From: Rhizophagus irregularis
Lineage: Eukaryota
DNA: 64,000 bases
NCBI RefSeq assembly: GCF_026210795.1
Contig: NC_089432.1
Coordinates: 2,852,001-2,916,000, forward strand
Direction of reading: 5' to 3'
Part shown: positions 1 to 56,160 of the stretch, in pieces
Layout of the letters: every line of letters starts with the position of its first letter
Numbering within the stretch: the stretch's first letter is position 1
Notes under the pieces: generated by a model
Database searches by the model: none
What the model was told of the DNA's origin: nothing
The model's input: the letters and a program-made list of their open reading frames with translations, nothing else
Made by a program: the position numbers and the translations under genes

Positions 1-1352
1 ATGTTTAGTTGATTAGATTTCTAAATAAACAATGTTCATACAGCAAATTTATTATTAAAATGCAAAAGCATCTTAAAACATTAAGCAGAATAAACAAATT
101 TTAATTAACAAAAAATTTAAGATAATGAAATTTTATTTATAAATAACATTCCCATTGGAAATACTAAAACTAAAGATTAGATCCAGTATTTAATATTCAG
201 ATTTAAATCCAAATATCAAAAGAAATCAGATATAATAAATCTGGATGGAAAAAAGGAAACCAGATTTATCATATCTAACTAAAACTAATTTGATTTTATA
301 TCTAAATATAAGTTTCTTTCAGATTCACATTTAAAATTTTTAATTTTCCTCTTCTTTTTATTAATTAATCTTCTAATATTTCTACAATACATTAGAATTC
401 TTTGAATATAATAATTTTATTTATGTTCAGTGTTAAAAAGTCAAAAAATGAAACTGGTAAAAAATATTTGGAAAAAAATTTTAAGGGGAAAGGGGCTCAA
501 AAAAGGTGGTAAATTAATAAGAAAATGTTGGATCATCGATTCAAAGACATAATATTGTTGTACAGGTTCTTTCTTTAATTAAATAATACGTTGAGATATA
601 TCATATGGCCTCATGTCATGTTGTACCGATATACATCTCTAGTAATGATTTGCTGAGTTGCTAATGTAAAAATTTTTTTTTTTTTCCCTAAAATAAATTA
701 CTATGATATTATTTGGGTTTTTTGTTTTGTAAAATTAATAAGCATATAAATATTGCATTATTTCAACAATTAAAAGTATTTTATTAGATGTTACAGATGA
801 CCAATAAATTTATAATTTGTGTAACTTATCATGCATTATTGACGTCTCACAATAAACACTTGATTTCTAGAGTGATCGGTTATTTATAAATATGGTAAAT
901 AATTTATAAACAGAATGAATAATTTATATAAGATACATAATTATTTGAAATATTTTTTTCTCTAAAATTTGAAATTAATGCTAATGTATAGATTTTTCTA
1001 ATATAAATTGTATTATGTGTTAATATTTAATATAACAAATATTCAAAATATTCAAAAGCAACATTTATTTCAATCATTATCCATGTTTATATACTATATA
1101 ATTTAATAATGAAATATGTAATAATTAAATTTTGTAAAGACTGTTAGCTATTTTTATTTTTTTTATTTATTTATTTATTTGTTTTTTTTTTCTTTCTGTG
1201 ATCAATTATTAGAAATTATCACACAGCTAATTTGACAAATCTGAATAAATTTTAAAAAAAATTTCTAATTTACATACAAAATTATCTTGACCTTTATATA
1301 GAAATTTTTTATGACTATTACATAATTTTTGTTACATATAATATATAAAATA

Positions 1353-8467: not shown

Positions 8468-8823
8468 ATCTTGGCTCGCATTACGTGCAAAAGTTGTTGC
8501 TTATTTTCGGATGAATACGTATTATAGATGCCTCTAAATTGATTTTTAGAGCCGATTCTCAATTTTCGTTCTATTAATGAATTTGTATCATTTGTATAAA
8601 AACATAAATTTCAATTATTTGAATTATTTATGTAGCATTGTATTTTTGTTTAGAATAAAATTATAATTATAAGATTTATAATAAATGATTAAATTTCCTG
8701 ATTTCCATTAAATGTTTTAAAATTGTTGTGTGGCATTTTAAAAGAAAATAATGACAGAATGTTAATTTTCCAACTAAAATTAAAAATAAATTGATTAAAT
8801 AGTCAACAAACTAACTTTATTAA

Positions 8824-9410
8824 TTGCCGATCCGCCTAAAAACGGCACTGCGTTACTAATAAAATTCGGGGATAATAGCGATAATAAAAAAAAGCATTTT
8901 TTGCATCTCGCGCGCGAAATAAGTTTCACCCATTTTACAAACAGAAATATCATAAAAACAATATTTTCTTTCATTTTATGACAAGTCATATTTGCCAAAA
9001 AATTTTATAATTATATTTCTGTAACTGGTTTTCTTCAACTTTCACTTGTTTTTAATAATAAAAATATTTTAAAAAAGCTTTTAAAACCAACTTTAGAAGC
9101 TAAAAATTATAGGTTTTTATTGTAAATAATGCAATATAGTAAAATGAAATATTGAAATTTCGTATATTTTAAGGTGTAAATCTGACGCGCGCGCATAGTA
9201 AACTCATTATTTTGCATACGAATGTATAACTTTTTTTTGCAAATTCGTTTTTTTCAAGTATTTTTTCAGTATATCATATGATTTTTTTTTTATAGTCAAT
9301 ATGTCATCTATGAGATATCCTTTTTTGAAGTTTGTGTTCTAGCACAAAATCGGCAAATTTAACCCCGAATTTTATTAGTAACGCAGTGCCGATTTTAGGC
9401 GGATCGGCAA
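8824..9410. mobile_element. MITE with ~48-bp TIRs flanked by TTAA
   Basis: TTGCCGATCCGCCTAAAAACGGCACTGCGTTACTAATAAAATTCGGGG and its near-perfect reverse complement at 9363-9410. TTAA at 8820-8823 and 9411-9414. Superfamily not assigned. Confidence 0.85.
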
Positions 9411-10398: not shown

Positions 10399-13300
10399 CT
10401 AGGAAACGGTAACCGTTGGTGCGTCCGAAGCGTCATAAATCACATGTTCATAAATTTAAACTATAAAATGTAATACTAATAATGTAACACTAAAAATGTA
10501 ACACTAAAAATGTAGTAAAAAAATGTAACACTAAAGTAATTGTATCACTAAAAAATGTCATTTTATTATCATACTTTGTATTACGTTGCAAATTTTCAAT
10601 TTATTCCCATGATTGTCAAAAAAAAAAATAATTATTAATGTGAATTTTGAAGAGTCATTAACCTTGATTCTTCTTCTATTCTTTCTTCTAATCTTTTGAG
10701 AGATTTGATGCGCTGGAGTCTTTCAAAGGAAAATGGGCTAAAGAGAATATCTTTAAGAGCACAGACTCGTGAAATAGCCACGAATGATTGTCCAGCTGCA
10801 TACTCCTTTTTTCCAATATCTATCACCGCTTTTTGTAAAGTTAAACCCTGACTTTTATGAATAGTAATAGCCCACGCAAGGCAAATAGGTACTTGCAAGC
10901 GTGAGCAAGTTACTTTTTTCCCCTCCCAACTGTATCTAATTGGTGAAACCGGCACAAGCCTTTTACCTTCTTCAGTAACAATAGCCGGCCCATAATAATT
11001 GTCAAATTCTATAAGAACAGCAATAGGAAGTGAAGGAGGGGACTGGTTTTCTTCGAATATGATTTCTTGGACAGTACCCAACGATCCATTGACCAAACCA
11101 ACTTCTGTCCATAAGTTAATCCTAAGCATAACTCTTGCTCCTCTTGCCAATAATAATTGAGCCTCAAGTCCTTTTGCCAGCTCAGGATCAGCTTTACTCG
11201 TCTCTTTACCTCCTGTATGGATAGCTTTGATTAGAGCAACAGGACAATTTAACGATTTAAGCTTATTAACATTAAATTCAGCAACATCGGACTTCCGATA
11301 CATGATACATATGGCATCTGAGAATTCTGCTGATGTAATATTTGTTCCGTTGCTGAATTGAGTAGTAAGTTCTTTCCAGTCATCTAGTGTTGATTCACCA
11401 TCACGCATTCGCAATAATATGGCTCTAAACTTGCGCTGTACATCCGAATCACCTGACTGACGTTGAATAACATCGAGCTTATAAACTTCACGGAACTGTC
11501 TATATGTCTTGATACCTTCATTTGACAATGTATCTCGAGAAATTTTTGAGTACATTGGTTCATCACGTACCGGCGGAAGCTGGCCAAAATCTCCAACCAA
11601 TATTATTGAGCGTCCACCAAAGACTTTATTTTGTTTCTGAGGGAAAGCTTGGCGTAATCTCATGTTGATTAAGGCAAGCATACGACGCCCTACCATACTT
11701 TTTTCATCTATAATTAAATATTCTACGCCTTCTAATTTTTTCTGTAACTTTTTCAGGCGTTCACCATTTAGATCTAGCTTATTGTTGGATATAGGAATTG
11801 AAAGCGCTGAATGTATTGTTATGCCGCGAATGTTGAAGGCCGCTACTCCGGTTGGCGCAAGCACTAAAACAGGTGAATGCTCAGTTATATTGTTATTTCT
11901 TGCAATTTCTTGCAAACGAGATCGAATCATATTAATTAAATACGACTTTCCAGTGCCTGCAGTTCCCATTACAATAACATTGAGCGCGTCAACGTTACCA
12001 GGATTCAATATTAATGCTTGATAATGAGATTCAACTCGCTCAAAGATTATTTTTTGTTTTTCATTTAATGTATGGGGGTCTACAACACGATCAGTGACAT
12101 TATCATTCTGTTCAACATACAAATTACGAGCATTTTGTATGAAATTGGGAGAATCAGCAAGATCAATATTGGTATAACGCTGTCTAACATCGCCAACCCA
12201 GTCATAATTTCTATCAATCTCACGTAAACCCAATTCAGAAGAACCTTCTAAAATCGCGTCCGGTCTCATTTCTGATAAGATCATCCAGTCAGGCCGCTGT
12301 TCTTCATCATCATCAAATTCCTCGTATTCGTAATCACTATCTTCATCATTTGATTCGTTCTCTAAGTTATCTACTGGAGGACCAAGTATGTCAACAGGAT
12401 CGTTTTCAATTATCTCACGATGGCGATAATAGAGTTCTGACCATGATATAGTATTGTTTTCGGTTAATTGGGAAAGGTCACGATGGCACACATGAAGAAG
12501 AACTTTTACACGGCAAAATTCTTCCCATTGAGGTCCATCAATCTGAGGTGAAGGTCGTGGCCAAATACGAACTATATTTTCTTTTTTACATGGTTTCCAC
12601 TGACCTTTCCAAAAGTTATATTGTAGGTGAAGCCGGAAAAGTGAAACATCATCAAGTTCAGCAGGACAAACCCAGTACTTTTGCAAAGGAGACTGTACTG
12701 TTTGGCCAACTTCACTATCGGCCAAAAATGATTCTTCGTTGTTGTCTCCCGTTCCACAAAGCCATCGATGCGTTAATTTGTTAAGGTTTAAAGTGACAAA
12801 CCGGCGACTTGAATGATATAAAGGAATACTGAGCAGCAGATGGCAAGTTTCCTGTGCCGAAATATCACGTTCAGCGACAGTATGGAGTAATAAACCTTGG
12901 AAAACAGGCAAAGACGAAGCATCAGGAGCATTTTCGTTGAGAATCTTGTTCAAGATCTCAGAAAAAGCGGCTGAGCGTGGTTCCGATTTGCTGGCGTACT
13001 TTGACACGTACTGTAAAGCCGTATTCATGCTGAGTATCGGTTTTAAATCAACGTTCGCTCGCCAACCTTGGAGTTGCAATCGATCATGAGGGTTGACATA
13101 CTCATCGTTTCTTGCCGTTATTAACTCAGGTTGTCCTTTATTATCTCGTAAGTACGTGTCATTAGTGATCTCTTTTGGATAACCAAATCTGCAAATATTT
13201 TTACCTGCGCGATCCACACGAAGACAATACGCAGGATTACATCTAGTATGACGCTGCAGTTTGTTGACTAACTCAATGTAATCTTGCAGGTCATCACTCA

Positions 13301-15630
13301 ATTCTTCAGGGCGTTTTTTACAGGGATGTTGAGCAGGCACAGGTGCGTCTTGATCAGGATTCTTTGTTGTAACTAATGAATCTAGGTAACGCACCACATT
13401 ATTCATCATGTCTTCATCTTCCTTCATTTTTTCCCAATCAATAGATGGAGCATCCTTCCTTTTCCCAATGCCATGAACATGAGGGCTGCCGCGGTGCTGC
13501 CACTCAAATCTATACCAATAATCTTCAAGATTCCATTTGGGAATTAACACTTTTTCTAAGAACAATTTGAAACGTTTTTCGAAAAACCAAGCGGAAATGT
13601 GAGGATTCTCAATCAAATCTTGTCGCCTATATCTATCAGCATCCTCTACATCCCCATGCGGCATAAGATTGTGTAACTCAGGCCAATGTAGGTCGGCTGC
13701 GCTGAATGTAAAAAATATCATTCCTTGTGATCCTAATTGCCTTATCATATCAGCAAGCTCATATCGCCTCTTTGTCCAAAACTGTCTAGTTCCACGTAAG
13801 GCTTCCCCAAATCTTACAATTCTGTCAGCCATGTGATTGTCTTTTTCTATCATCTCTTTTATTTCTTCAACGGTATACTGCTTATCATCTAAAACTTGCT
13901 TAACATATACTTTTGCTTCTTGCAGCGCCCTCCATCGCATTTGCGAATTTAACGCAAAATATCTCCAACGAGGATGACAGGCAAATCTTCCATCCTTATA
14001 TTTAAGTAAATGCGAAAAATATTCGGAAGGTTTAACCTCTCTAACGTGATTAGAACGAAGATCTCCATTCCCGGTTGGATACAAAGTAGGGAAGGCACAT
14101 GCAATATAACCGGGTGTTTGAAACTCATTGATAGGAGTTCCATCTATACTTGGCCACATAATAGGAAGATCATTATCTTGCATCCTGTTAAGAGTGTCGC
14201 CGATGGCTTGTTCTTCATTAGGTGATGGAAGTGGAGCAGGAACAAAGTTACTCCCTATCATATCTTCATAAACATCGTCATCATCGTTAAAGCGTTGTTC
14301 CACATCGTCAATTTGCGGAAGCTGATCATCAATTGGTCCGTCTTCAGGTAAGGATTGCAATACTTCTTCATCAATAACAATATCAGTATAATAACGATTA
14401 TTTTGTTTTAGCCAGCAAAGTGCGCGAGTGACCTTAGTGCGACGAACAGTGAAATTTTTGTATATCAAACTATTTGCAGATTTACGACGCACAATGAGAA
14501 CGTCAAGAGAAGACGGATTTCTGGGGAGCTGTGTTGCAAATTCTTCCACGTTTTGTGGAAAGTTTATAACATTACCACGATAAGCATACTGACCACCACG
14601 AAGACAATATACTGAAACAATAGGAAAGATCCTTGCAATCAACATTTCCTCTATTTCGGTAAGATCACGTAATTCTTCTGGCACATCACCAGGATCCATA
14701 TTGTTATCGGCAGAAAACTTTTTAACAGTATTTTTGTCATAGTAACAGCGACGACATTGTCCACTTATAATTTCGATGGATGGAAATCGTTCATTACACA
14801 CTGGGCAACAATTATTTACGAAGCTATTAATCTTAGTGCGAAATTCATGTAGGAGTTTCCTATCAGCTTCAGAAAGTCGAGATTCGTCAGAATCATCTTG
14901 CGTTGGTTCATCCTGTCTGTTGAGTTGCTCTTCAATATTTGATAGAGCAAGCCTTTCTTTTCTTTTCATATGGTAACGTTCACGTCTTTTTTGCAATCGT
15001 ATTTCACGTTGTTCTGCAGTCTCAGTTGCTCTTTTTACGCGTTTATTCTCTTTGTCCTGAGCCAGTCTATTTTCACGTTGCTCAACAGTTTCATCCGATC
15101 TGTTTTTTCGTTTTCGTAATGTATCACGAAGTGGCTGGGAAACCATTTGATTTACGATTTTACAAGCAATTAATATCAACGAAAACAACACAGCAATAAA
15201 AAATTCAGTGGTATATAATATTTATGAATACAATTGTTTTATTTTTTATTTATTTTTATTTTTATTTTAATTTTTAATTAAAAAAAACAAATACATTGTA
15301 AAAATTATAAATAATAAAAAAAAATTAATTACTATTTTTTGAATGCCGTAAAAAACTTTTAAGAAATAACTTAAAAGAATTTTAAGTAAGGGATGAAAAA
15401 AAACAAAATAATAAAATTAAATTTTTTGAAGATATTTTTAACGTGTAAACAGTCATGTGTCATGTGATTTTATAAAGATATTTTTAGAATCAGGGGCATA
15501 AAGATGCACGTAAACAAATCTAAGGTTACACCTGATCCTTAGATTTTATTGGCCATACACGCGTGCGGACAGACACCAACATGCATGGTATGGAGTAGTA
15601 TGGAAGTGTCCTACGCTTACGCTTCGGACA
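10399..15630 (-). mobile_element. Autonomous Helentron/Helitron2-type rolling-circle transposon
   Basis: Contains the RepHel ORF. 11-bp asymmetric subterminal inverted repeats GTCCGAAGCGT (10423-10433) and ACGCTTCGGAC (15619-15629). 3' palindrome AACGGTAACCGTT (10405-10417), then CTAG (10399-10402). 5' hairpin TGTCC...GGACA (15607-15630). T on both flanks on the minus strand, no TSD. Confidence 0.85.
10635..15146 (-). CDS. Rep/Helicase (HUH Rep plus PIF1-family helicase), ~1503 aa
   Basis: Single ORF, first ATG at 15146 (MVSQPLRD). Zn-finger CPVC..CRRC. Rep motifs FFTFS, EWQHRGSPHVH, YVSKYASK. Helicase motifs GTAGTGKS, IIDEKSM, GDFGQLPPV, AITIHKSQGLTL, GQSFVAISRV. Confidence 0.96.
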   Translation of the reverse strand: MVSQPLRDTLRKRKNRSDETVEQRENRLAQDKENKRVKRATETAEQREIRLQKRRERYHMKRKERLALSNIEEQLNRQDEPTQDDSDESRLSEADRKLLHEFRTKINSFVNNCCPVCNERFPSIEIISGQCRRCYYDKNTVKKFSADNNMDPGDVPEELRDLTEIEEMLIARIFPIVSVYCLRGGQYAYRGNVINFPQNVEEFATQLPRNPSSLDVLIVRRKSANSLIYKNFTVRRTKVTRALCWLKQNNRYYTDIVIDEEVLQSLPEDGPIDDQLPQIDDVEQRFNDDDDVYEDMIGSNFVPAPLPSPNEEQAIGDTLNRMQDNDLPIMWPSIDGTPINEFQTPGYIACAFPTLYPTGNGDLRSNHVREVKPSEYFSHLLKYKDGRFACHPRWRYFALNSQMRWRALQEAKVYVKQVLDDKQYTVEEIKEMIEKDNHMADRIVRFGEALRGTRQFWTKRRYELADMIRQLGSQGMIFFTFSAADLHWPELHNLMPHGDVEDADRYRRQDLIENPHISAWFFEKRFKLFLEKVLIPKWNLEDYWYRFEWQHRGSPHVHGIGKRKDAPSIDWEKMKEDEDMMNNVVRYLDSLVTTKNPDQDAPVPAQHPCKKRPEELSDDLQDYIELVNKLQRHTRCNPAYCLRVDRAGKNICRFGYPKEITNDTYLRDNKGQPELITARNDEYVNPHDRLQLQGWRANVDLKPILSMNTALQYVSKYASKSEPRSAAFSEILNKILNENAPDASSLPVFQGLLLHTVAERDISAQETCHLLLSIPLYHSSRRFVTLNLNKLTHRWLCGTGDNNEESFLADSEVGQTVQSPLQKYWVCPAELDDVSLFRLHLQYNFWKGQWKPCKKENIVRIWPRPSPQIDGPQWEEFCRVKVLLHVCHRDLSQLTENNTISWSELYYRHREIIENDPVDILGPPVDNLENESNDEDSDYEYEEFDDDEEQRPDWMILSEMRPDAILEGSSELGLREIDRNYDWVGDVRQRYTNIDLADSPNFIQNARNLYVEQNDNVTDRVVDPHTLNEKQKIIFERVESHYQALILNPGNVDALNVIVMGTAGTGKSYLINMIRSRLQEIARNNNITEHSPVLVLAPTGVAAFNIRGITIHSALSIPISNNKLDLNGERLKKLQKKLEGVEYLIIDEKSMVGRRMLALINMRLRQAFPQKQNKVFGGRSIILVGDFGQLPPVRDEPMYSKISRDTLSNEGIKTYRQFREVYKLDVIQRQSGDSDVQRKFRAILLRMRDGESTLDDWKELTTQFSNGTNITSAEFSDAICIMYRKSDVAEFNVNKLKSLNCPVALIKAIHTGGKETSKADPELAKGLEAQLLLARGARVMLRINLWTEVGLVNGSLGTVQEIIFEENQSPPSLPIAVLIEFDNYYGPAIVTEEGKRLVPVSPIRYSWEGKKVTCSRLQVPICLAWAITIHKSQGLTLQKAVIDIGKKEYAAGQSFVAISRVCALKDILFSPFSFERLQRIKSLKRLEERIEEESRLMTLQNSH

Positions 15631-17559: not shown

Positions 17560-19933
17560 ATGTCTAATATTAATAATAATAATAATAACGAAATGAAAAA
17601 TAACGGGAATACAGATGAATGGATAAATTGGATTGAAGAAGCGATTGATAAAGAATATTTAAAATATTATGAGTATGAAAATTTTAAAAATATTCAAGAA
17701 ATTGGATCCGGAGCATTCGGAAAAGTTTATCGTGCAAATTGGAAACATTTTGAAGATTATTTAGCGTTAAAATCTTTTTTTAATCTTAATAACGTCACCA
17801 TAAAAGAAATTGTTAATGAGGTAATTTTATAAAAATATATATACTATGTATATATATATTATTTATTTTTGCATATTCTTTGTAAATTTAAAGAAGTGTA
17901 ATTCAAATTTTTTTTTTTAAAAAAAAAACTTTTAAATGATTATACATTTATTATTTTAGCTCAAACTTCAACTTGACGTAAGCTTTCATAATAATATTAT
18001 TCGCTTTTGCGGAATTACAAAATTTGAATCAGGTATTGATAATTTTTACAATTACGTATATTTATTTTTAAAAATGTTTTTTTTGCGTAAATTCAATAAA
18101 TAAATAATTATTATTAATTTTTTAATTTTTTTTTTAGAAAATAAATTCGACCAATCAAAAAATTATTTGTTGGTAATGGAGTACGCGGACGGTGGTACTC
18201 TTCGAGACTATTTAAAGTATAACTTTAGTAGACTTACTTGGATCGAAAAATATAACTTGGCTTATCAATTAGCTTGTTCTATATCATGTCTACATGATGA
18301 AGGAATCGTTCATCGAGATTTGGTAATTTTTTATTATTAAACGATAATAATAATATTCCATAAAGTTAGCTTACTTTTGTTTGTACATTATAATAGCATT
18401 CTCGTAATGTGTTGGTTCATCAGAATTCCATCAAGTTGGCAGACTTTGGGTTATCGAAAAGGATTGATGATGCAACAAAAACACAATCAAAATTGCTTGG
18501 TATGATTCCTTATATTGACCCAAAAGTATTAGTGGATGAAAATTTAAAGTTAAATGAAAAGAGCGATGTATACAGTATTGGAGTATTATTATGGGAAATA
18601 TCAAGTGGAAATTCACCATTTCATGAAAAGACAAATAAGGTTAGTTTAATCTATAGTATTTTGCAAGGTAAAAGAGAAGAGATTATTCCTGATACTCCTA
18701 TTGATTATTCTAATCTCTATACTGGTAAATATGATTTCAATATATTAAATATAACGTTTCTTTATTATTTATCGAAATAATTGTTTAATCAGATACATAT
18801 TTTAATTATTAGATTGTTGGAATGGTGAACCAAGTAAACGACCATCCATACATGAAGTTGTTGATAGGTTAAGAAAATTTGTTATAAATTCAAACAGAAT
18901 AACAATTTATCAACAGAATGATATGTCTAATCAAACTAATATCAAGCCAAATGATAATCTAGGTTCAGTTAATAGTGGAAATTCGTTATCTGGGGAATTT
19001 TCTCAAGTGATCAAAAATTTTGGTAATACGAATTCAAATGAACTAGATATGATGTTTGCAGATAAATTCAGAGATAAAATTTCATCTGAGAAAATAAGCA
19101 TATTAGTTAATGAAGTAGTTGATCTCATTTTTAAAGAGATTAATGAAAGAAATGTTGCAAAGCGACGTCATGTTCTCAATTATCTTAATAATCATAATGT
19201 GAATTCAAAAGAAATTTATGATTGGTTATTATCTAATGAATCTAGTAATACAAGTTTTATTTTTTTACTTGGATATTTTAATTATGTGGGGATTGAAACA
19301 ACTAAGAATTATGAGAAAGCTTTCGATTTATTTATTAATGCACTAGATAAGGATAGCCTATTAATACAATTTTTTGTTGGAGAATGTTATGAAAATGGAA
19401 ATGGTGTTACAAAGAATGAAAATCTAGCTTTTGAATATTATGAAGAATTGTCCGATATAGGGTATGCAATGGGTCAATTTAAATTAGGCTGGTTTTATGA
19501 AAATGGATTAGGCGTTAAAAAAGATTTTAAATTAGCAGCTCAATTTTATGAAAAAGCTGCAAATAATGGACATTTGTTAGCTATGCATAATCTTGGAAAT
19601 TTCTATAGACGTGGGGTCGGTGTTGAAATGAATCATCATAAAGCTTTTGAATTATTTAAAAAATCAACTGAAGGAAAATATTCAGGTGGAATAATGATGT
19701 TAGGATATTGTTATGATCTTGGTATTGGAATTGATAATGATAAGCAAAAGGCAGTTGAGTTGTATGAAAAAGCAGCAAATTTAGGACATAAGGTGGCTCA
19801 ATATAATCTTGCTATGATGTATGAAATAGGTGACGTAGTTGAAAAAGATTTAGATAAAGCAATTTATTGGTATGAAAAATCTGCTAAGCAAGGAGATAAA
19901 GATGCTCGAAATAAGTTAGATGGATTTATATAA
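17560..19933 (+). CDS. Tyrosine-kinase-like protein kinase with Sel1-like repeats (5 exons), paralog of 6004-8467
   Basis: Exons 17560-17820, 17960-18032, 18138-18322, 18397-18724, 18813-19933, with the same intron positions as the first copy. GSGAFGKV, HRDLHSRN and DFG intact. Multiple Sel1 repeats. Confidence 0.93.
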
Positions 19934-20044
19934 AATTTTTTTTAATAAGTAATTTCATTTTATTACATACATATATATACGTAAATTTAACCTTTCTGAT
20001 TTATATAAATTATTTAATATTTATTTATTTTTTTTTATAACAAA

Positions 20045-20073
20045 CTAGCAGTTACCCGTTGCTTCGCACCGGG
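20045..20073 (-). mobile_element. Canonical Helitron 3' terminus
   Basis: Minus strand reads CCCGGTGCGAAGCAACGGG (GC-rich hairpin), TAACTG, CTAG, then T. The 5' end was not located. Confidence 0.7.
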
Positions 20074-21115
20074 ACCAATGAGTTTGTTTAAATAGAAAAT
20101 TTTTGTAATACTAAGTAAATTGCTTATAATTAGGAATTCAATATAAGTAATAATTAGTTGACAAAAATTAATAAAATAATATGTATTGAATTATAAGTGT
20201 AAATTTAGATCTCGTCCCTTTGCGTGATGTTTAAATCTCGCCTTTATTTCAAAAAAGGATATTTTTATGCCGATCATTTAATTCTGACCAGAATTAAATA
20301 CGTCTGATTTAATGAAACCCCCCTTCCCGAAAATTCAATAAGTCAAAAATAATATTAGAAACCATCTTTGTTGCTTTAAGTAAACTTGCAGAGCAGGGGA
20401 AAATACACATAGTAAACATTTATTAAAAAGTTTGTATATTAAGATTTTCTTTTTTTGTTATAGGATGCGAAATTTTAAAATCATACAGGGGCAAAAATTA
20501 CACGTTCTCGACCCTCCTCATATTACTTTCTTGACCCGGTCAAAATAGGCATGATCATGTATGACAAAAATTTATTTTCTTGACCTGCAAAAAAAACACT
20601 GACGTATTGTTATTTTTCTTTTATAGACACAATCACACAAAGAGATTAATTGAAAAAAATAATATTAATACGAAGTGGGTCAAGAACGTAATTTTTGCAT
20701 CAGGGGAGGCATATCACGGGCTTTAATTATATGGCATGGGATTTCAAGTTACACAATTTAAACTATTTATACATGCTAGTTTAAAGGTTACGGTTACACT
20801 TGTATTTTTTTAGTTATATACAGTAGATTATGATTCAAACCTAGTATAATAAATGATTAATTTTCTATTTAAAATTGTTTTGTCTTTTTAAAGAAAATAA
20901 TTGTTAGAATATTAATAAGGGAATGTTCTAGTCTAAATTATTAAAATTAATTAACTAACAAATTTTATTAATCTAATGATTTATTTACAACAACAATTAC
21001 ATTATCATAAACACAAGTTATATATAAAGTAAAATAAAAGAATTTAGTTAGTTTAAATTATAATTAAATATTATATTATATAAACAAGTAATAATAGAAT
21101 TAATAAATAACTTAC

Positions 21116-22242
21116 AAACTATTTAATAAAGAATTTGTTAGTAATAATAGAATAAAATAAATAACAGTAGTTTAAATTATATGTAAGACGGGGTGATGAT
21201 CACCGGTGGCTGAAATTATGACGATCGACCAGCATTAAAAAATATAGTGCCGGTATAATTGATAATTCTGGCCAACGGTGATGATCACCCTGGTGATTTG
21301 AAGTAAAAATCATAATAAAATTAAATAAATAACTCATAACTTACCAACTAAAGAAATACAAAATAATTTTTAAATAAAGAATTTAGTTAGTTTAAATTAT
21401 ATGTAAATACTATGATATAATAGAATTAAATAATTAACATACCATCTATAAATAATTTTTTAAATAAAAGAATTTAGTTTAAATAAATTATAATAAAATT
21501 AAATAAATAACATATAACTTACCAACTAAAAGACATTACAAAATAATTTTAAAGAATTTAGTTAGCTTAAAATTATATAAATAATAGAAATATAGGTATT
21601 TATAACTTACACCCTAGTATTAATTAATTAATTATTAGTTAAATATAAATGTAATACAAATATTTTACTGCATATTAAATATATCACTTACAATCTGGTT
21701 ATTTAAATTAAGAATATAATTAGTTGAATTATATAAAATATTAAAACAAATAAATATAATATTGTAACTTACTATCTGTAATACAATTAATTATTAAATA
21801 GTTATTTAAATAAAGAATTTAGTTATTTTGAATATTATGCAAAATAAATAAAGTAAAAAAAAAATCTAATAACTATCAACTTACTGACTATATTGATTAC
21901 ATGAAATATAACAAAAATGATAAGTAATTCTATTATTATTCAATTGTAATATAACTTATTAACTTACGAGCTAAAAATATTTAATATAATTTTTTGTATA
22001 ATATAGTTAATTTAAATTATATTTATATATTATGTAAGGTATAAATAATTATAGGTAGTATTTAAATGTATTTACAAATAAAAATTTAATATTTTAGCAT
22101 GTTTAATATACCTTTAGATTCCCTGATGCTACTTTCTTTAAATTCTTCAGAAACTAATTTATTACATTGCAAGTTTGTTAAAAATTTTAGAGTTCTAATT
22201 ATATACTATATAATTATTACCTTTATTATTACTTTCAGCCAT
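21116..22242 (-). pseudogene. Orphan, truncated copy of the micro-exon N-terminal cassette (no kinase domain follows)
   Basis: Exons 22242-22221 (MAESNNK) and 22153-22112 (VSEEFKESSIRESK). Then 3-nt exons, each flanked by AG/GT: CTC (21968-70), TCA (21885-87), ATA (21773-75), ATT (21692-94), GGT (21611-13), TTG (21523-25), ATG (21443-45), TTG (21345-47), TTT (21116-18). Inverted homolog of ~34090-35000. Confidence 0.75.
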
Positions 22243-23949
22243 TATTATATAATTATCTCTGACTGGAAAAGATAATGTAAATATTTTTTTCTTTTTTTTA
22301 TTGTTAAACGCTTTTATTAATATGGGTATATATGGTAATAATATTTATGCCAAGCATTGTAGAACTTGAGCCCGTGTAATACACGTTTGCCACCTCAAAG
22401 CTACAAAAGATCGTCCTTTATTTATAACAACAAAATATTAATATATCCCAAGTTACACATATACTATAATAACGCACGTCAATAAAGGGTTCACTCTTTT
22501 TCCTGAACGAATTCCTTTCGTATTTATAATATTTCACAACTCTTCCCAGATACCTTTCAAGTATCGCCTATTGCAAGAACAAATTAAATAAAATTACACA
22601 AAAATTAAAATCGCACAAAATAATATTTACACAAAAAAATATTTACACAAGAATAGTTTAACGTAAATTACGGTCGTTACACTAATAAAATACTTTAAGA
22701 ATTTATACACTTAAACTAAATATAATACTGCGCTCTATAATTAATTGCGAAATCGCAGTAACTGGTTGATCATTTCGTCTTTATCGTCTTTAATAGGTAA
22801 TTACTAATCACCTTTATTTTATTTTTTTGTGTTACAATTGATTATATTGTTAGAGTCTTTATTAACTTGAAGATAAGAATGCCGAAAAGCTTGAATCCAT
22901 AAACAGATTTTTCTTAATATATTCTACATTATTACAAACAAAACATAAATACACAACTCACAATAAATAACATATTAACTGAAAAAATATTAAAGGGCGT
23001 GCCAACTTGATTCCTGACGCCACCCTAGTTATTATATTATTTTAGTTAGGATTTCTATACGTTTCTTTTATAGTTCACCATCACCAATTCACCACCACTA
23101 CCATCACTGCTACTTTTATCCTCATATTGCCTTTCTGTTAACATTTTTTTTAATTTATAAACTATTTGGGTAAATTTAATAATACACTAAATACAGTATG
23201 TATATTATTATTTAATGGATGCAATAGAAGAAAGAAAAAAAAATTTGGGGAAAAGAAAAAGGATAAAGAAAGAAATGGGATTTAAAAAAAACAAGTACCG
23301 AAAAAAAGGACAATAATTCGGTCAAAAAAAAGACCAAAAAAAAATTCAAAATAAAAATTAATAATATGGTCAACAAAAAGACCGAAAAAAATAATATAAG
23401 TCTTAAAAGATTATTTAATAAAAAAAAAGTAATAATTTTTCGGTTTTGGAAAAAAACCAAATCTAGACGGGAAAAGAATGAAAAAAAAAACAAAAAAAAA
23501 GAGAAAAAGGAAAAAAAACGAAAAATTTTTGAAAAAGATAAGAAAAAGGAAAAGAAAAAGGTGTTTCGAAAGAAATTTGAAAAAAAAGTTTGAAAAAAAA
23601 GAAAGAACTATTTGTAAAGGATCGGTTCAAGAAAAAAAAAGAAAATTAAAAAAAGGGGAAACGAAAAAATTTACCGATCGGTTGGAAAAAACCAAAAAAA
23701 AAAGCCGATCAAGCGGCTCTTAACAATTCAAAATTAATTTATACAGGCTAATCTAAACGTTCATAACTAAATTTTCTACTATATAAAAATAAATTTAACT
23801 ATACTAAAGTAATTTTCTGTGTAGTGTGTTATGTTTGATCTAAAGAAATATTTGTCACAATATTACCTATATCTTATTCAGCGTTACCTCTTTTTAATAT
23901 TTTTACATCTCAATTTTTTTTAATCTTTGTTTTTCTGTAAATTTCCATC

Positions 23950-24620
23950 ATCATTAATAATATAGTCTCGTCGAGTCGTCGATATATTAAGGTCCTTTGA
24001 CAACGACTAATACGTATGTTAAAGCACCTTTCCCATAATTTGAGTACAACCCTTTAGTATCTTTATCGTGTTAAATTTATTGCTTGTACTAATTTCCAAG
24101 CTTTGAATTTTCCATAAAAAATTTTTGAATTTTTGCGCATTATTTTGATAAAATATATATTAATGGATCTTATTATTTGACATTTCTCTCTATATATATA
24201 TATATAAAATATATATATTGATTCAAATTTATGAATTCTTCTAATTTCGTCAATGATTTCTAACATAGTGGCTTCATTTCGTCATATTCTCAAACGTGTT
24301 CCCATGATTCCTCCTCTTAATTGCATCGAGGTTACATTCCAGAAATAATCATTACTATTTTTGTTAAAATAAACACTATACGTGGGCAAATCTTTCAAAA
24401 AAATTTTTATTATTTTGTACATTCTATCGTTACTATCCACTATATTTTTTGTAATTATTTTGATTGTTGATAAATTTCAACAGTAGTAATCCAATCAAAT
24501 TCTTGTAGAACATTGTTATCATAATTTATCATTTCGTTCTTGTATTTTGCATTCTTGGCAAGCCTTTAATTAAATTGTTGCCACCTGATCACCAATGGAA
24601 AGTGATAAGAAAAATTTTCT
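23950..24620 (-). mobile_element. Degraded non-LTR retrotransposon (LINE) C-terminal fragment
   Basis: Minus-strand fragments EFDWITT, KDLPTYS and PRCN*EEESWEHV*E resemble the Zn-binding region downstream of LINE RT. Stops and frameshifts present. Boundaries approximate. Confidence 0.6.
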
Positions 24621-30963: not shown

Positions 30964-33900
30964 CTTTCACCCATTAAAAAAATTCTCAAAAGAAATTCTT
31001 TATCAAGGAAAACTCCCTCAATTAAAAAAAAATTCGTAACGAAATTCTCTATCAAAAAAAATTTCACTTGTTAAAAAATTTTCTAACGAAATTATCTATC
31101 AAAAAAAAATCTTCTCTATTAAATAATTCTCTATCAAAAAAATCTCTCCTGTTAAAAAAAATTGCTCCAACAAATTAAGTATACATCAAAAAAAAAAAAT
31201 CTCATTAAAAAAAATTCTCCAATGAAATTTCTATCAATTAAAAGTTTTTAACAAAATTATCCATCAAAAAAAAACTCAGAAATGTTCCTATCAATGAAAA
31301 AAATTTTCTAACGAAATTTTTTATCAAAAAAAATCTTCTTATTAAAAAAATTCCCAATGAAATTCTATCAAACAAAGCCTTTGCCTATATTAAAAATAAA
31401 AATTCTCTACAAAATTTGTTTATAAAAAAAAGCCAATAAAAAAAAAAAATTTTTTTTTAAAAAAAATTAAATGGCAGGTACCCGATATGTGAAATGGCGG
31501 GTACCCGATATGTGAAGCGGCAGGTACCCAATATGTGAAGCGGCGGGTACCTGATATGTAGAACGGCGGGTACCTGATATTTGAAACGGCAGGTATTCGA
31601 TCCCTTAATAATTTAAAATTTGGTCCAAAATAAATTAATAAACCATTATAATATAAAGCGCATACGCGTTAAATTATGTAGCGTATACACGTTGCTTTTT
31701 ATGGCGGTGTAAACAGTCAAATATCAAGCATGAAAATATGATAAAATTCAACCACCAAATGTAATTGCCAAATATCAAGAACGAACAAATTAATTGTGAA
31801 TTGGCGTAGACGGATAAATAATTAGCCGAAAAGGATAAACATTTAGGAAGAGATATGATCTACATGATGTAATATTTATCAAATGATTGACAAAGAACCA
31901 ATAGGATAAATAGAGTCGATCAATTGGGGCTTAGCAATCTTTAACAATGAGAACGATTAGAAAGAATAATTATAAGCCACAAAAGATAGATTATAAGCAA
32001 AACACATAAAGCGAATTGAAAGAACATATAAAATAATGTCAGAAAGATTAAAGAACATAAAATAATATAAAAGATAATATAAAAAGATAGTATAAAGATG
32101 GAACATAAAAGATGACATATTAAAAAGAACATATATAAAAAGATAGCGTATTTAAAATATAGATAATACAAAGATATTATAAAAGATAATATATATATAA
32201 AAGATAGCATATTAAAAGATAGCGTATTTAAAATATAGATAGTATATTAGAAAGATAGTTCAAAGATAATATGTAAAAAGAACATAAAAGATAGTATATA
32301 GATAGAATAGAAAGTAGCGTAAAATTTGTATAAATAGAGAACGGAATTCAAAGTAATTCCACAGTTCTCATCCACAGAACTCAATAAAAATATAAGTTTC
32401 ATTTAATTATTTGTTAATGAAGTTTAATATTAATTAGAGGTAATAGGTTCGCCCTAAACTTTAATTAATGTTCGCTTAATTAATTTTGATTGAATAAAAT
32501 GGAAATTTAAGATGAATTAAATATATACTTTTGGAAGGTAATAATTCGTAGCGAGAGCTATCGAAGTTTGAAATTAAAGGTAAAAGTGGATATAATTTGG
32601 GGAAAATTTAGAGAAGTTAATTTTTATTTTATATCGTTTAATGTTTTATATTACTAACGCTATTTATGTCATGAACCAAGAATGTTGTTGTTATATGTTG
32701 TTGTATGTTGTTCGTTGATTATGTTGTTTGATTATGTCGTTAATTATTTGCTTGTTCGTTTAATTGCTCGTTCGTTTGTTTATTTGTTCGTTCGACCATG
32801 AGAATGCCCGTTCGATGTGGCAACTCTGTAAATTGATGACAGAGGGAATTGGGGGATCTCAGCAGGTTACCCCTGAAATTGACAGGTTAACCCAACAGAA
32901 CAGGGGTAACCCGCCGTGAAATATAACGTGTATACGCTATGTTTTGTAGCGTGTACACGCTATGTTTTGCTACGCACTTTTGACCACTACCGCTTGCCAT
33001 AATGGACATACGCTAGATTAGACAAGTTTTAAACTAGCATGGTCTTTTTTGGTGTAGGTTTCAATATAAATTTGTAGAAAATAGATACTTTATTGACACA
33101 CTGTATGTATATATGGTGAATATGGGTCTGATTAAGATGTTAATTGACTCCAGCACTAATAAAGTATTAGTCAAAAAAAAAAAAAAATTAACCAGTTAAT
33201 GTACCTTCGAAAATTAATTAACTAGTTAATAACTGTATGTACATATATACTGTATATTCTTTTATAATAATTTTACAATAATTAAAAAGTATTTTTACTA
33301 AATAAAACAATGCTACTTGATATTATATTATAAATTAAAATTATTCAAAATTACAAAAAACAGTTATTTATAAAAACTACATATATTAAAATTAATGTTA
33401 AATAACTCTTGAATGTAAAAATATTCAAAATAATAGGTCATCAGAATTTTAATATTCAGCTGGAATAATCTTGAAATTGTAACACTTAAAAGAAGTGATT
33501 TTATAACTGTTCCTGAAGCAATTAGAGAATATGAATGACTTGAAAGAATAGCCAATAACCTCTTGCCAATCTAACGTCTATTGCACCTATTGAATAATAA
33601 TATACATATTATTAAATTTGCTCAAATAGTTTATAAATTAATGAATAAAATGTTAATTTGATTTTTTTCACAGCATAAAACAATCATGTTAATAGAGGCA
33701 ATATGAGGATAAAAGTAGTAGTGATGGTAATGGTGGTGGTGATGAACTATTTACACCTCCCTAGTTAATTGTAAACGAAATGTCGAAACATATAGAATTC
33801 TAACTAAAATGATATAATAATAAATACCCTAACAATATAATCAATTGTAATTAGGAGCTTTGAAATTACAAATCATGTGATAAGATGCAGTGTAAGACGA

Positions 33901-34091
33901 ATAAGAAACACCAAAAAAATAAATAGTAATTGCCTAAAACGAAATGATCAACCAGTTACTGCGATTTCGTAACATATGCAATGCTTGTACTTGTGATCAA
34001 CGGCTTTTGCATATAATGCATTTTGTATAAATATTACCATATATACCCATATTAAAGAATATTTACATTATCTTGAGATAATTATATAGTA

Positions 34092-37000
34092 ATGGCTCAC
34101 AGTAATGATAAGGGTAATAATTATATGTAATATATATAGCGTATAATTAGAATAAAATTTTTAAACAAATTTGCAATGTAATAAAATTAGTTTCCGAAGA
34201 ATTTGAAGGAAGTACTAGTACCAAGGAATCTGAAGGTATATTGAACAGGCTGAAATATTAAATTTTTGTTTGCATACTATCTATAATTGTACCTTACATA
34301 ATAATTTAAGCAAACTAACTATTATACAAAAAATTATATTAAATAATTTAGCTCGTAAGTTAATAGGTTATATTACAATTGAATAATAATGGAATTACTT
34401 ATCATTTTTGTTATATTTCATGTAATTAAATAACTTATTTAATAATTAATAATACTATAGTCAGTAAGTTATTAGTTATTTAAATATTTGGTTTTTTACT
34501 TTATTTTATTTTACATAATATTCAAAATAACTAAATTCTTTGTTTAATAACTATTTGATTAATTAATTGTATTACAGTTGGTAAGTTACAATATCATATT
34601 TATTTGTTTAATATTTTATATAATCCAACTAATTATATTCTTAATTTAAATGACCAGATTGTAAGTAATATATTTAATTTGCAGTAAATATTTTGTATTA
34701 CATTTATATCCAACTAAATAGTTAATTAATAATACTAGGGTGTAAGTTATATATACCTATATTTCTGTTATTTATATAATTTAAATTAATTAAATTAAAA
34801 TTATTTTGGAATTTCTTTTAGTTGGTAAGTTATATGTTATTTATTTAATTCTATTGTTACTTAATTTAAACTAATTAAATTTCTTTATTTAAATAGATAG
34901 TAAGTTATAAGCTATTTATTTAATTCTATTATTACTTGTTTATATAATATTTATATATAATTTAAACTAACTAAATTTCTTTATTTAAATAGATAGTAAG
35001 TTATAGGTTATTTATTTTATTACTTGTTTATATAATATTTACATATAATTTAAATAACTAAATTCTTTATTTAAATAGATTGTAAGTTATAAGTTATTTA
35101 TTTAATTCTATTATTACTTATTTATATAATATTTATTTATAATTTAAACTAATTAAATTATTTATTTATAATATTATTTAATAATATAGGGTGTAAGTTA
35201 TTTATTTAATTCTATTATTACTTATTTATATAATATTTACATATAATTTAACTAACTAAATTCTTTATTTAAAAAAATATTTTGTAATTTCTTTTAGTTG
35301 GTATGTTATAACTTATAAGTTATCTATTTAATTCTATAATATTTATTTACATTAGTTGTTTACATATATGATTTATATATAATTTAAAATTAACTTCTTA
35401 TTTAAAAAATTATTTTGTAATTTCTTTTAGTTGGTAAGTTATAAGTTTTTTATTAATCCTATTATTACTTGTTTATGTGATAATTAAATATAATTTAAAC
35501 CAATTAAATTCTTTATTTAAATTATTTAAATAGATGGTAAGTTATAAGTTATTTAATTCTATTATTACTTATTTATATAATATTTACATATAATTTAAAC
35601 TAACTAAATTCTTTATTTAAATAGATGGTAAGTTATAAATTATTTATTTAATTCTATTATTACTTATTTACATATAATTTTAACTGACTAAATTCTTTAT
35701 TTAAATAGATTGTAAGTTATAAGGATTGATTTAATTCTATTATTACTTATTTATATAATAATATTTACATATAATTTAAATTAACTAATAAATTCTTTAT
35801 TTAAATAGATGGTAAGTTATAAGTTATTTATTTAATTCTATTATTACTTATTTATATAATATTTATTATTTACATACAATATAAACTAACTAAATTCTTT
35901 ATTTAAAAATTTATTTTATAGGTGGTATGTTATTTATTTAATTCTTTTATTACTTATTTATATAATATTTATAATATGAGTAAATTTATTCATCGCACGT
36001 GCGATGCATCGCCACTTTCCTTTTTTGTAAATTATTTATGTTGATCAACCTGCTTATACATCGCCACCCCCCTTAAAATGGCAATGATAAACATAAAAAT
36101 TTGCATCGCACGTGCGATAAATAAATTATTTCTTATAATATTTACGTGTAATTTAAACTAATAAAATTCTTTATTTAAATAGATTGTAAGTTATAAGTTA
36201 TTTATTTAATTCTATTATTACTTATTTATATAATACTTATATATAATTTAAACTAACTAAATTTTTTATTTATAGGGCGTAAGTTATATTTATTTAATTC
36301 TATTATTACTTACTAATTATATAATATTTACATACAATTTAAACTAACTAAATTCTTTATTTAAAAAATTATTTATAGATGGTATGTTATTTATTTAATT
36401 CTATTATTACTTATTTATATAATATTTTCATATAATTTAAGCTAACTAACAAATTCTTTATTTAAATAGATGGTAAGTTATGAGTTTTTTATTTAATTCT
36501 ATTATTAGTACTTATTTATATAATATTTACATATAATTTAAACTAACTAAATTCTTTATTTATAATATTATTTAATAATATAGGGCGTAAGTTATTTATT
36601 TAATTCTATTATTACTTATTTATATAATATATACATACAATTTAAACTAACTAAATTCTTTATTCAAAAAATTATTTCATAGATGGTATGATGTTATTTA
36701 TTTAATTCTATTATTACTTATTTATATAATATTTACATATAATTTAAACTAATTAAATTCTTTATTTATAATATTATTTAATAATATAGGGCGTAAGTTA
36801 TTTATTTAATTCCATTATTACTTATTTATATAATATTTATTATTTACATACAATTTAAACTAACTAAATTCTTTATTTAAAAAATTATTTTATAGATGGT
36901 ATGTTATTTATTTAATTCTATTATTTAATATTTACATATAATATGAATTAACTAAATTCTTTATTTAAATAGATAGTAAGTTATAAGTTATTTATTTAAT

Positions 37001-39476
37001 TCTATTATTACTTGTTTATATAATATCTATATATAATTTGAACTAACCAAATTCTTTATTTAAATAGATTGTAAGTTATAAGTTATTTACTTAATTCTAT
37101 TATTACTTATTCATATAATATTTACGTATAATTTGAAGTTTTAAACTAACTAAATTCTTTGCTTAAAAAATTGTTTTATAGATGGTATGTTATTTATTTA
37201 ATTCTATTATTACTTATTTACATAATATTTTCATATAATTTAAACTAACTAAATTCTTTATTGAAAAATTATTATTTAATAATATCTGATAGGGAGTAAG
37301 TTATTTATTTAATTCTATTATTACTTATTTATCATATAATTTAAACTAAATTCTTTATTTAAAAAATTATTTAATATTATAGGGCGTAAGTTATTCTATT
37401 ATTACTCATTTATATAATGTTTACATATAATTTAAACTAACTAAATTCTTTATTAAAAAATGATTTTGTAATTTCTTTAGTTGGTAAGTTATAGGTTATT
37501 TATTTAATTCTATTATTACTTATTTGCATATAATTTAAACTAACTAAATTCTTTATTTAAATAATTATTTTATAGATGGTATGTTATTTATTTAATTCTA
37601 TTATTACTTATTTATACATATAATTTAAAGTTTTAAACTAACTAAATTCTTTATTTAAATAGATACTAGTAAGTTATAAGTTATTTATTTAATTCTATTG
37701 TTACTTATTTATATAATTTACATGTAATTTAAACTAACTAAATTCTTTATTTTTATAGATGGTATGTTACTTATTTAATTCTACTATTACTTATTTATAC
37801 AATATTTATATACTAATTTAAACTAACTAAATTCTTTATTTATAAAAATTGATTTAATAATATAGCTTGTAAGTTATTTGTTGTTTGTATTTTATATAAT
37901 ACTTATTTGTTAATTGAATTTTTTCATTCAAATTTCTGTTACTTTAGTTGGTAAGTTGTAGGTTATTATTATTATATATATTTATACAAAAACTAAGACA
38001 TACAGTATATTATATTAAATTTTTATTTAAATTTTAGAGTAAGTGTTGATTTTAATCTTATAACTTTTGATATAAATTTCAATATAATTTCAATTATTTA
38101 AATTTGTAGATTTGGAAAAAGTGGAAATGTAAATATGGATAACTTTATTTTAGAAAAAAAATTAAAATGGATTCCTTATGATAAATTTAAAAATATTGAA
38201 TATCTTGATAAAGGAGGATTTGGTACTATATATAAAGCTAATTGGTTAATTAATAATGAAGATAAAGAAGTAGTTCTTAAATGTCATGATAATTTAAGTG
38301 AAAATTTAAATGAATTTTTAAATGAAGTATGATAATATATTATTTTATTTTATAATTTAAATCATAATTTATTTATACTAATATATTATGATTTTTTTAT
38401 AGTGGAAATATCACAAAAGTTGTTTAGGTTCAGATAAAATTATTTATTTTTATGGCTTTACAAAAGCTCCAAATACTTTGAAATATATGATGGTAATGGA
38501 TTATGCAAATGGAGGTAATTTAAGAGGAAACTTAACAAGAATAATCGAAATTGTTTGGAATCAAAAATTATATATGTTACATGAAATTATTTCTGGACTT
38601 AATAATATACATGAACAAAATCTTATTCATTGTGATTTTCATGATGGTAATATTTTAAATCATTATGAGAATAAAATTTATATTAGTGATTTAGGATTAT
38701 GTAAACCTGTAAAATCATTTATGAAAAAATATGATATTTATGGTGTTATACCATTTATGGCACCTGAAGTTTTAAGAGGCAAATCTTATACTCCAGCTAG
38801 TGATATTTATAGTTTTGCTATGATTATGTGGGAATTTACATCTGGGGTAACACCATTTAATAATAGAGCACATGATGTTCAACTTAGTTTAAGTATTTGT
38901 AAAGGTGAACGTCCTGAAATTATCAAAAATACTCCACAATGTTATGTAGATTTAATGGAAAAGTGTTGGGATGAAAACCCATTAAAAAGGCCATCTTCTA
39001 AAGAAGTTTTGAATATTATTAAAAATTGGGTTTTTTTTTCAGGTAAAGGGGAAGTTGAAGATATTAATGAAAAATTGAAATGTAATATTATGGAATTTAT
39101 AAATGCACCAATTGGGCATAACAATAATCTTTCTATTGAATCTCATCCACAGTCATGTTATACAAGTCGCTTACATGGTTTTACTAGTAAACAATTGAAT
39201 GAAATTCTTGGAAGTAGAGATTTACAAGCTTATTATTCAAGTCAATCTACTAGTGGAAAAGTGAATGAAATTCTTGAAAGTGAAGATTCACAAGCTAGTG
39301 TAAAAGTGGATGAAATGCTATTAAGTGAAAATTTGGATGATTGTATATTTAATTTGAAGTCATTAGGTATGTAATATAGTATATAAAAAGAATTAAATTT
39401 TATGAATTATTTATATGAAATTAATTTAATTATTTAATTATTTAATTAATTAGATATTAAAACAGACAAAAAATAA
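34092..39476 (+). CDS. Tyrosine-kinase-like protein kinase with a micro-exon-encoded N-terminal segment (predicted 42 coding exons, ~460 aa)
   Basis: Exons 34092-34113 (MAHSNDK), 34191-34235 (VSEEFEGSTSTKESE), 37 micro-exons in 34352-38038, then 38110-38326, 38403-39366, 39454-39476. Kinase motifs KGGFGTIY, VVLK, HCDFHDGN, DLG, APE, SDIYSF. The kinase part is certain; the N-terminal model rests on splice signals and frame closure. Confidence 0.8.
34236..38109 (+). other. Tandem intron/micro-exon array (38 introns, 37 micro-exons)
   Basis: Repeating unit GTAAGT/GTATGT ... (A)ACTAAC-type branch site ... YAG, followed by a 3-nt exon. Introns are about 70-130 nt; one is 258 nt because of a MITE. 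Confidence 0.85.
35978..36132. mobile_element. MULE-like MITE inside a micro-exon-array intron
   Basis: TIRs GAGTAAATTTATTCATCGCACGTGCGATGCA / TGCATCGCACGTGCGATAAATAAATTATTTC. Perfect 9-bp TSD TTATAATAT. Confidence 0.88.
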
Positions 39477-55999: not shown

Positions 56000-56128
56000 C
56001 TAGATATATAATACCACATACAATGCAGACTTCTTCGTGAAGCCATTTCTCTGAACAATTTTTCACCAAGTAATCAATAAATCAATCTGCATGTACAATT
56101 TGACAGATATTAATATTTTTAAAATAAA

Positions 56129-56160
56129 CTAGCAGTCACCCATTGCTTCGTACTAAGATC
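56129..56160 (-). mobile_element. Degenerate Helitron 3' terminus, same family as 20045
   Basis: CTAGCAGTCACCCATTGCTTCG vs CTAGCAGTTACCCGTTGCTTCG at 20045. Hairpin partly mutated. Confidence 0.6.

Follow-up and report, generated by a model that had tools for sequence, protein, structure and literature searches.

Candidate arrays of codon-sized exons in a Rhizophagus irregularis kinase-family gene and in a kinase-less copy that is probably a relic

Two inverted copies and their neighbourhood

The window, that is, the whole stretch of 64,000 nucleotides of Rhizophagus irregularis analysed here (contig NC_089432.1, positions 2,852,001 to 2,916,000), carries two related gene copies, copy A (plus strand) and copy B (minus strand), which lie 11 kb apart in inverted orientation and have introns that are ~92% identical. 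Copy A opens with an exon 1 of 22 nt (34092-34113) and an exon 2 of 45 nt (34191-34235), followed by an array (34352-38038) of 35 slots of 3 nt, one of 6 nt and a final one of 1 nt, together 112 nt, with introns of 72-258 nt. The kinase exons (PF07714/PF00069) occupy 38110-38326, 38403 onward and a last short exon after 39449 (to 39470), and the full chain from the conserved ATG through the array to the kinase exon is one open frame. The main ORF (38403-39371) is 100% identical to a kinase model of R. irregularis DAOM 197198w and matched only kinase families in Pfam, and the best 120 of its 751 matches were all from Rhizophagus where the organism was named. Three public models of copy A start within the kinase, so that exons 1-2 and the array are missing from them. 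Upstream of the ATG of copy A, a single base at 33891 (+) stands between CAG and GTAAG and might represent a 1-nt exon of the 5′ UTR; copy B lacks the site.

Copy B begins with an exon 1 of 22 nt (22242-22221, minus strand), which starts with ATG and ends in phase 1, and a Ser/Glu/Lys-rich exon 2 of 42 nt (22153-22112), followed by nine slots of 3 nt at 21970, 21887, 21775, 21694, 21613, 21525, 21445, 21347 and 21118, all flanked by YAG and GTA[AT]G. Its spliced translation equals the one given in the original prediction, and the frame-preserving 3-nt indel in exon 2 (42 nt against 45 nt in copy A) was likewise found. Micro-exons 1-6 (21523-21970) are collinear with copy A, and their splice sites, proposed earlier to be conserved, are all identical. 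Micro-exon 3 reads ATA in copy B and TTG in copy A between the identical flanks that had been quoted; the more general statement that the exon codons have changed applies to this one of the six collinear micro-exons, while the other five are identical. Micro-exons 7-9 (21116-21445) retain consensus splice sites and are not collinear with copy A: the best matches of slots 7 and 8 are internal units of copy A that share their intron type, and nothing in copy A clearly corresponds to slot 9.

The retained exons of copy B are free of stops and frameshifts, and all ten complete introns have consensus ends. Intron 10 contains a 116-nt MITE-like insertion (21302-21187), with 29-nt inverted arms at 83% identity and 4-nt direct repeats at its flanks. 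An insert with an inverted repeat, also MITE-like, is carried by the 258-nt intron 19 of copy A (35925-36182, plus strand), and since copy A is expressed, the insertion in copy B is no proof of decay. The last intron unit of copy B (21030-21115) is incomplete: it has a donor and a branch-like region and no acceptor, and it ends with the homology to copy A at about 21030, some 10-15 nt before the expected acceptor position. As had been predicted, the array ends without a kinase. No kinase sequence or motif was detected in six frames over the following 1,097 nt, up to the stop codon of a convergent Sel1-kinase gene; the corresponding part of copy A measures 4,280 nt. Copy B thus has the family N-terminus (exons 1-2 and the first micro-exon) and, unlike copy A, no protein kinase domain. 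Rfam gave no match in 19900-24600.

Homology between the copies spans about 23230 to 21030 of copy B, with the outer limit near 23230, and it includes the shared upstream non-coding blocks that the original prediction had described. One set at 23070-23228 corresponds to about 33577-33751 of copy A, within which 23152-23090 pairs with 33676-33738, and two more blocks at 22745-22864 correspond to 33818-33850 and 33936-33972, the latter matching 22781-22745 at 35/37 positions. Between the upstream block and the ATG-proximal region, copy B has ~400 nt (22345-22744) that are absent from copy A and have no other copy in the window.

The window also contains Sel1-kinase pairs, a BTB-TLDc gene, a TPR gene and a Helitron ORF. 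The latter (10638-15221, minus strand) encodes a Rep/PIF1 helicase in 1,528 uninterrupted codons. Three gene pairs are duplicated at 73-76% identity: two Sel1-kinase pairs, in the order listed at 5966-8260/17524-19873 and 57844-59771/62040-63968, and a third pair at 44491-46122/47435-49010, the third type being ORFs of ~530 residues with no Pfam match. Two near-identical, inverted GC hairpin sequences in the region of ~8820-9410, with ends at 8859 (+) and 9375 (-), are likely the ends of a small inverted-repeat element. Transposon-like pieces also occur at and past the break of copy B, namely, on the side towards the Sel1-kinase gene, a MITE-like element with inverted arms (20502-20689) and, ~1 kb past the break, a Helitron-like 3′ end (20045-20081, minus strand; a GC hairpin followed by CTAG). 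A similar terminus lies at 56116-56165, its likeness to the end at 20045 being limited to 50 nt. R. irregularis has been reported to possess a TE-rich, more methylated compartment with expanded families, including Sel1 and BTB genes (PMC8647823), and an expanded set of high-copy kinase genes with 2,533 members (PMC10234402). By its gene content, the neighbourhood of copies A and B is the repeat-rich compartment described in the available text of PMC8647823, and truncated duplicates are unsurprising there.

Three-base slots as candidate exons

A scan of the window for YAG-(1 to 9 nt)-GTA[AT]G found 49 three-base sites, whereas 200 local shuffles gave 5.3 on average and never more than 12; every other exon length gave 1-7 sites. 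Copies A and B hold 44 of the 49 (35 and 9, respectively), and the slot pattern is not a product of chance. Moreover, none of the 63 splice-site positions in the seven collinear introns differs between the copies, against 10.7 differences expected from base-matched intron rates, while 42 of 537 intron core positions differ (7.8%). Splicing therefore constrained the lineage of copy B during most of the period after its divergence from copy A. Many consecutive candidate 3-nt exons with canonical and constrained splice signals, which define an array of codon-sized exons of the Tuber nank type, were thus found in both copies. The comparison with copy A shows array splice signals that are under selection, with the first six units stable and the rest reshuffled.

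The reading frame was evaluated from the codons of copy A that exist only after splicing. Read in phase 1, their usage index is 0.68 against 0.72 for a reference of 4,220 local codons, and 29% of random draws are as low, while the same codons read in phase 0 give 0.29, a value reached in 0 of 5000 draws. In copy B the index is 0.64 in phase 1 and 0.38 in phase 0, on 7-8 codons. The probability of an open frame across 37 codons is 0.04-0.055 under shuffles. The final 1-nt slot of copy A has consensus sites and sets the kinase frame. A phase-0 reading is also open and makes third-base changes look synonymous; it would produce a hydrophobic Met/Ile/Leu/Gly stretch, as in seven public models. It was rejected because its codon usage is so far off, and it also requires a second ATG, which is absent from copy B, and a weak donor 4 nt behind the consensus donor.

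Copy A is transcribed and spliced. The contigs of run X6, whose type was guessed as RNA, have edges that coincide exactly with the kinase exon edges, and contig 1 matches 38110-38326 without mismatch and carries 127 extra letters at its 5′ side. These letters are absent from the last introns (depth 0) and from exons 1-2, where the depth is 1.08 and 0 against 7.6 and 6.7 expected if the array were skipped. Their number is what full inclusion of the array predicts, with 112 nt from the slots and 15 nt from exon 2, the latter too short to map. Raw reads confirm only the splice between exons 1 and 2 of copy A, with a GT..AG joint at 34112/34190 in one read of X23 and three reads of X24; the reads mapped to copy A are mostly paralogous (823/1100 and 862/1236, at 90-95% identity). 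No joined micro-exons occur among the reads listed for copy A, and no transcript-derived protein with the micro-exon peptide was found among 61 short homologues. Taken together, the slots of both copies are likely exons; in copy A we infer their inclusion in the mRNA, with which the RNA contig agrees indirectly.

The original prediction held that splice signals are conserved while exon bases change, and only its first half was borne out. Exon bases differ between the copies at 13 of 82 positions (15.9%), against 7.8% in introns, which gives a raw p of 0.034. This excess reflects base composition, in that sites involving G or C differ about equally often in exons (36%) and in introns (39%), and base matching yields an expectation of 13.0 for the 13 differences seen (P=0.56). 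Faster exon evolution between the two copies was therefore rejected, and for the B/A pair the exon bases proved no more variable than neutral sites, an outcome named beforehand as speaking against the proposal. For the micro-exons alone, 2 of 18 bases differ (p=0.65). Positive selection on the copy B exons was likewise rejected, as pN (0.155) is below pS (0.22).

The idea of more variable exon bases survives only inside copy A. Of 11 near-identical units there, 4 carry A, 4 carry T and 3 carry G as the third base of the slot (minor fraction 0.64), while 0 of 102 intron columns exceed a minor fraction of 0.30. Because these units were chosen by acceptor context and are related by block duplication, and so are not independent, the excess is suggestive only. 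Because the third base of a slot opens the next codon in phase 1, its variation changes the residue. Splicing also constrains this base, since all eight GTATG donors in copy A are preceded by G, against 9 of 29 GTAAG donors.

The family and the origin of copy B

A gene family, as originally proposed, does exist: the N-terminus of exons 1 and 2 was recognised in 25 of 226 retrieved proteins, and the models that bear it come from R. irregularis and R. diaphanus. Public models overall read the slots in phase 0 or skip them. Nine of the retrieved proteins read from micro-exon 1 into intron 3, as copy B would. A Met/Ile/Leu/Gly run that fits the phase-0 reading of the slots is present in 7 of the 226 proteins, nine having passed the threshold and two short read-through models having been dropped. 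These seven public kinase models with odd Met/Ile/Leu/Gly-rich N-termini (P0007, P0028, P0030, P0040, P0065, P0079 and P0123) are likely micro-exon arrays called in the wrong frame.

Outside these genomes, a scan of metagenome contigs returned two loci, of which L002 is a chance match in bacterial-like DNA and L001 a true diverged array. The latter (60-950, minus strand) has nine diverged 3-nt slots whose introns belong to the family seen here, slots 3 and 4 being further apart, and probably comes from another Glomeromycota fungus; its array is gapped and its phase-1 index of 0.41 versus 0.36 adds nothing on the frame. Viral contigs gave no arrays by pattern, with 0 of 35 candidates confirmed, and prokaryote genomes gave none.

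Copy B is probably the 5′ part of a Rhizophagus kinase-family gene that lost the rest of its array and its kinase through a recent deletion and is now a non-functional relic. Of the three roles originally offered (a relic, a short peptide gene or a gene-conversion donor), the relic is the best supported, since the kinase part is lost and the final unit has no acceptor. Loss of a functional coding part, which characterises truncated duplicates, is evident in copy B. Its splice sites stayed intact while the introns drifted by ~8%, so that it would have been functional for most of that time, and the loss of its 3′ two-thirds is therefore likely recent. Because the retained exons and introns are undamaged, decay itself is not demonstrated.

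In an intact member such as copy A, the short introns would interrupt codons after the first base (phase 1), and every unit of intron plus 3 nt would contribute a single residue to a low-complexity stretch of acidic and aromatic character (Asp/Asn/Trp/His/Tyr/Gly/Phe) that precedes the kinase, whose frame would be set by the final 1-nt exon. Near-identical introns in tandem invite unequal exchange, and unequal crossing-over between them is the likely means by which the array gains, loses and reorders units, which would alter the peptide codon by codon with the frame unshifted. Such an exchange is a candidate route to the truncation, and either it or a transposon-associated deletion likely cut copy B. 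Copy B need not be a direct copy of A, since the 3-nt-shorter exon 2 is common among paralogues (9/16 and 8/24 reads mapped to copy A) and its intron 2 agrees with two other models at one position where copy A differs. Differences between the two copies make copy B more AT-rich in 31 cases and less in 13 (p=0.0096, unpolarised).

An improbable alternative is that copy B is a live gene without a kinase, producing a short acidic peptide of about 30-55 residues or a non-coding RNA and perhaps serving as a decoy for partners of the kinases' variable N-terminus. It does retain undamaged upstream blocks, its start codon, the reading frame and all of its splice sites, and 18 of 19 short matches are public models of the exon 1/2 N-terminus without a kinase domain. 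However, copy B has no terminal exon, and each acceptor tried past its last slot leads to an early stop or sits in the antisense strand of the neighbouring gene. The short public models run on into one of the first three introns or end in other sequence; gene finders unable to cross an array give such products, which are thus no proof that kinase-less genes exist, and they were rejected as evidence of other orphans.

Less probable still is capture of the fragment by a non-autonomous Helitron, which would have moved it rather than left it broken in place. Helitrons can capture genes; the Helitron-like 3′ end at 20045 lies on the same strand as copy B, the Rep/helicase ORF at 10638-15221 is in the same window, and the intron 2 position mentioned above fits other paralogues better than copy A. 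Against such a capture, no 5′ terminus was found, the end at 56116 shares just 50 nt, the 3′ end of the ORF-bearing element itself did not match, and the segment formed by copy B and its tail has no second copy in the window.

It is very unlikely that the break is an assembly join inside the repeat, with the kinase of copy B lying elsewhere. The break does fall within an AT-rich repeat unit, and the best DNA-like runs contained only 0.35-0.44 of the words of the copy A region, so that short reads assemble such arrays poorly. Yet the 36-unit array of copy A was assembled with distinct units, the units of copy B are more diverged from each other and easier to span, and the window has long contiguous gene pairs. 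The chance is smaller again that the arrays are an intronic minisatellite of pseudo-splice sites excised as one intron, to which several public models that keep no slot or a single one between the exon-2 region and the kinase, and intronic paralogue reads that cover the array at low depth, lend some support; it is opposed by the splice-site conservation, the phase-1 codon usage, the frame-setting 1-nt slot with its consensus sites, the GC content of the slots (37% against 11% in introns) and the absence of X6 contig 1 from exons 1-2. That copy B donated variant codons to copy A by gene conversion, as had been suggested, is barely credible: the copies are close, inverted and similar enough in their introns, but divergence is even over the seven introns (p=0.45), no run of identity exceeds 35 nt although shuffling predicts 49 nt, there is no near-identity tract (copy A being the only recipient considered), and copy B differs in one micro-exon of the collinear part.

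Known micro-exon systems and the kinase family

Schistosoma micro-exon genes (MEGs) contain runs of short symmetric exons in fast-changing families, with exons longer than one codon and secreted products, whereas the phase-1 translation of the Rhizophagus array has no evident signal-peptide-like stretch. The closest published parallel is found in Tuber melanosporum, where the available texts on the nank (NACHT-ANK) NLR family describe codon-sized micro-exons that diversify an expanded family, with alternative splicing reported (PMC4986451, PMC13449251). Both systems have tens of codon-sized exons, belong to an expanded family of a mycorrhizal fungus and consist of frame-neutral units able to diversify a short region. 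In contrast to nank, the Rhizophagus host protein is a kinase of Glomeromycota with the array at its N-terminus, the units are tandem copies of one intron, introns likely split the codons after their first base (phase 1), and the array ends in a 1-nt exon. The NACHT and ankyrin domains that define the nank family are missing from the Pfam result for copy A, which is kinase only. The Rhizophagus arrangement thus works like the nank arrays and lies outside that family.

Single 1-nt and 3-nt exons are also spliced in Coprinopsis cinerea, for which the available text reports 89 gene models that contain an exon no longer than 3 nt (PMC12230235). In that fungus, the 27 exons of three nt belong to 26 genes (PMC12230235), while here 35 occur in one gene and 9 in copy B. 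Copy A belongs to the high-copy kinases of R. irregularis by its ORF identity and neighbourhood, and the available parts of PMC10234402 and PMC8647823 contain no mention of micro-exons. Among the matches listed, no title or abstract opening described the present Rhizophagus array; subscription papers and supplements lay outside this search, and some of them, such as the Nanopore-refined annotation of PMC10234402, could contain correct models.

A more far-reaching proposal, extrapolated from these two copies and rather unlikely at present, is that in a large subfamily of arbuscular mycorrhizal kinases dozens of single-codon exons might encode a hypervariable recognition segment at the N-terminus, so that unit copy number, order and skipping would generate peptide diversity between paralogues, strains and transcripts with the frame preserved, while kinase-less cassettes like copy B would act as expressed decoys or unit reservoirs.

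Taken by itself, copy B is most likely unremarkable gene-family debris, and its value is comparative, against copy A. The family, with arrays of codon-sized exons ahead of an expanded kinase family, matters more than the orphan. If the slots are included in the mRNA, many kinases of R. irregularis, a model species among mycorrhizal fungi, would have a variable N-terminal segment that is missing or misframed in public models, and intron definition would be put to an extreme test by the splicing of 36 consecutive one-codon exons plus one of 1 nt. The arrangement, if true, would also parallel the diversification of truffle NLRs and may offer a handle on why these fungi keep thousands of kinases.
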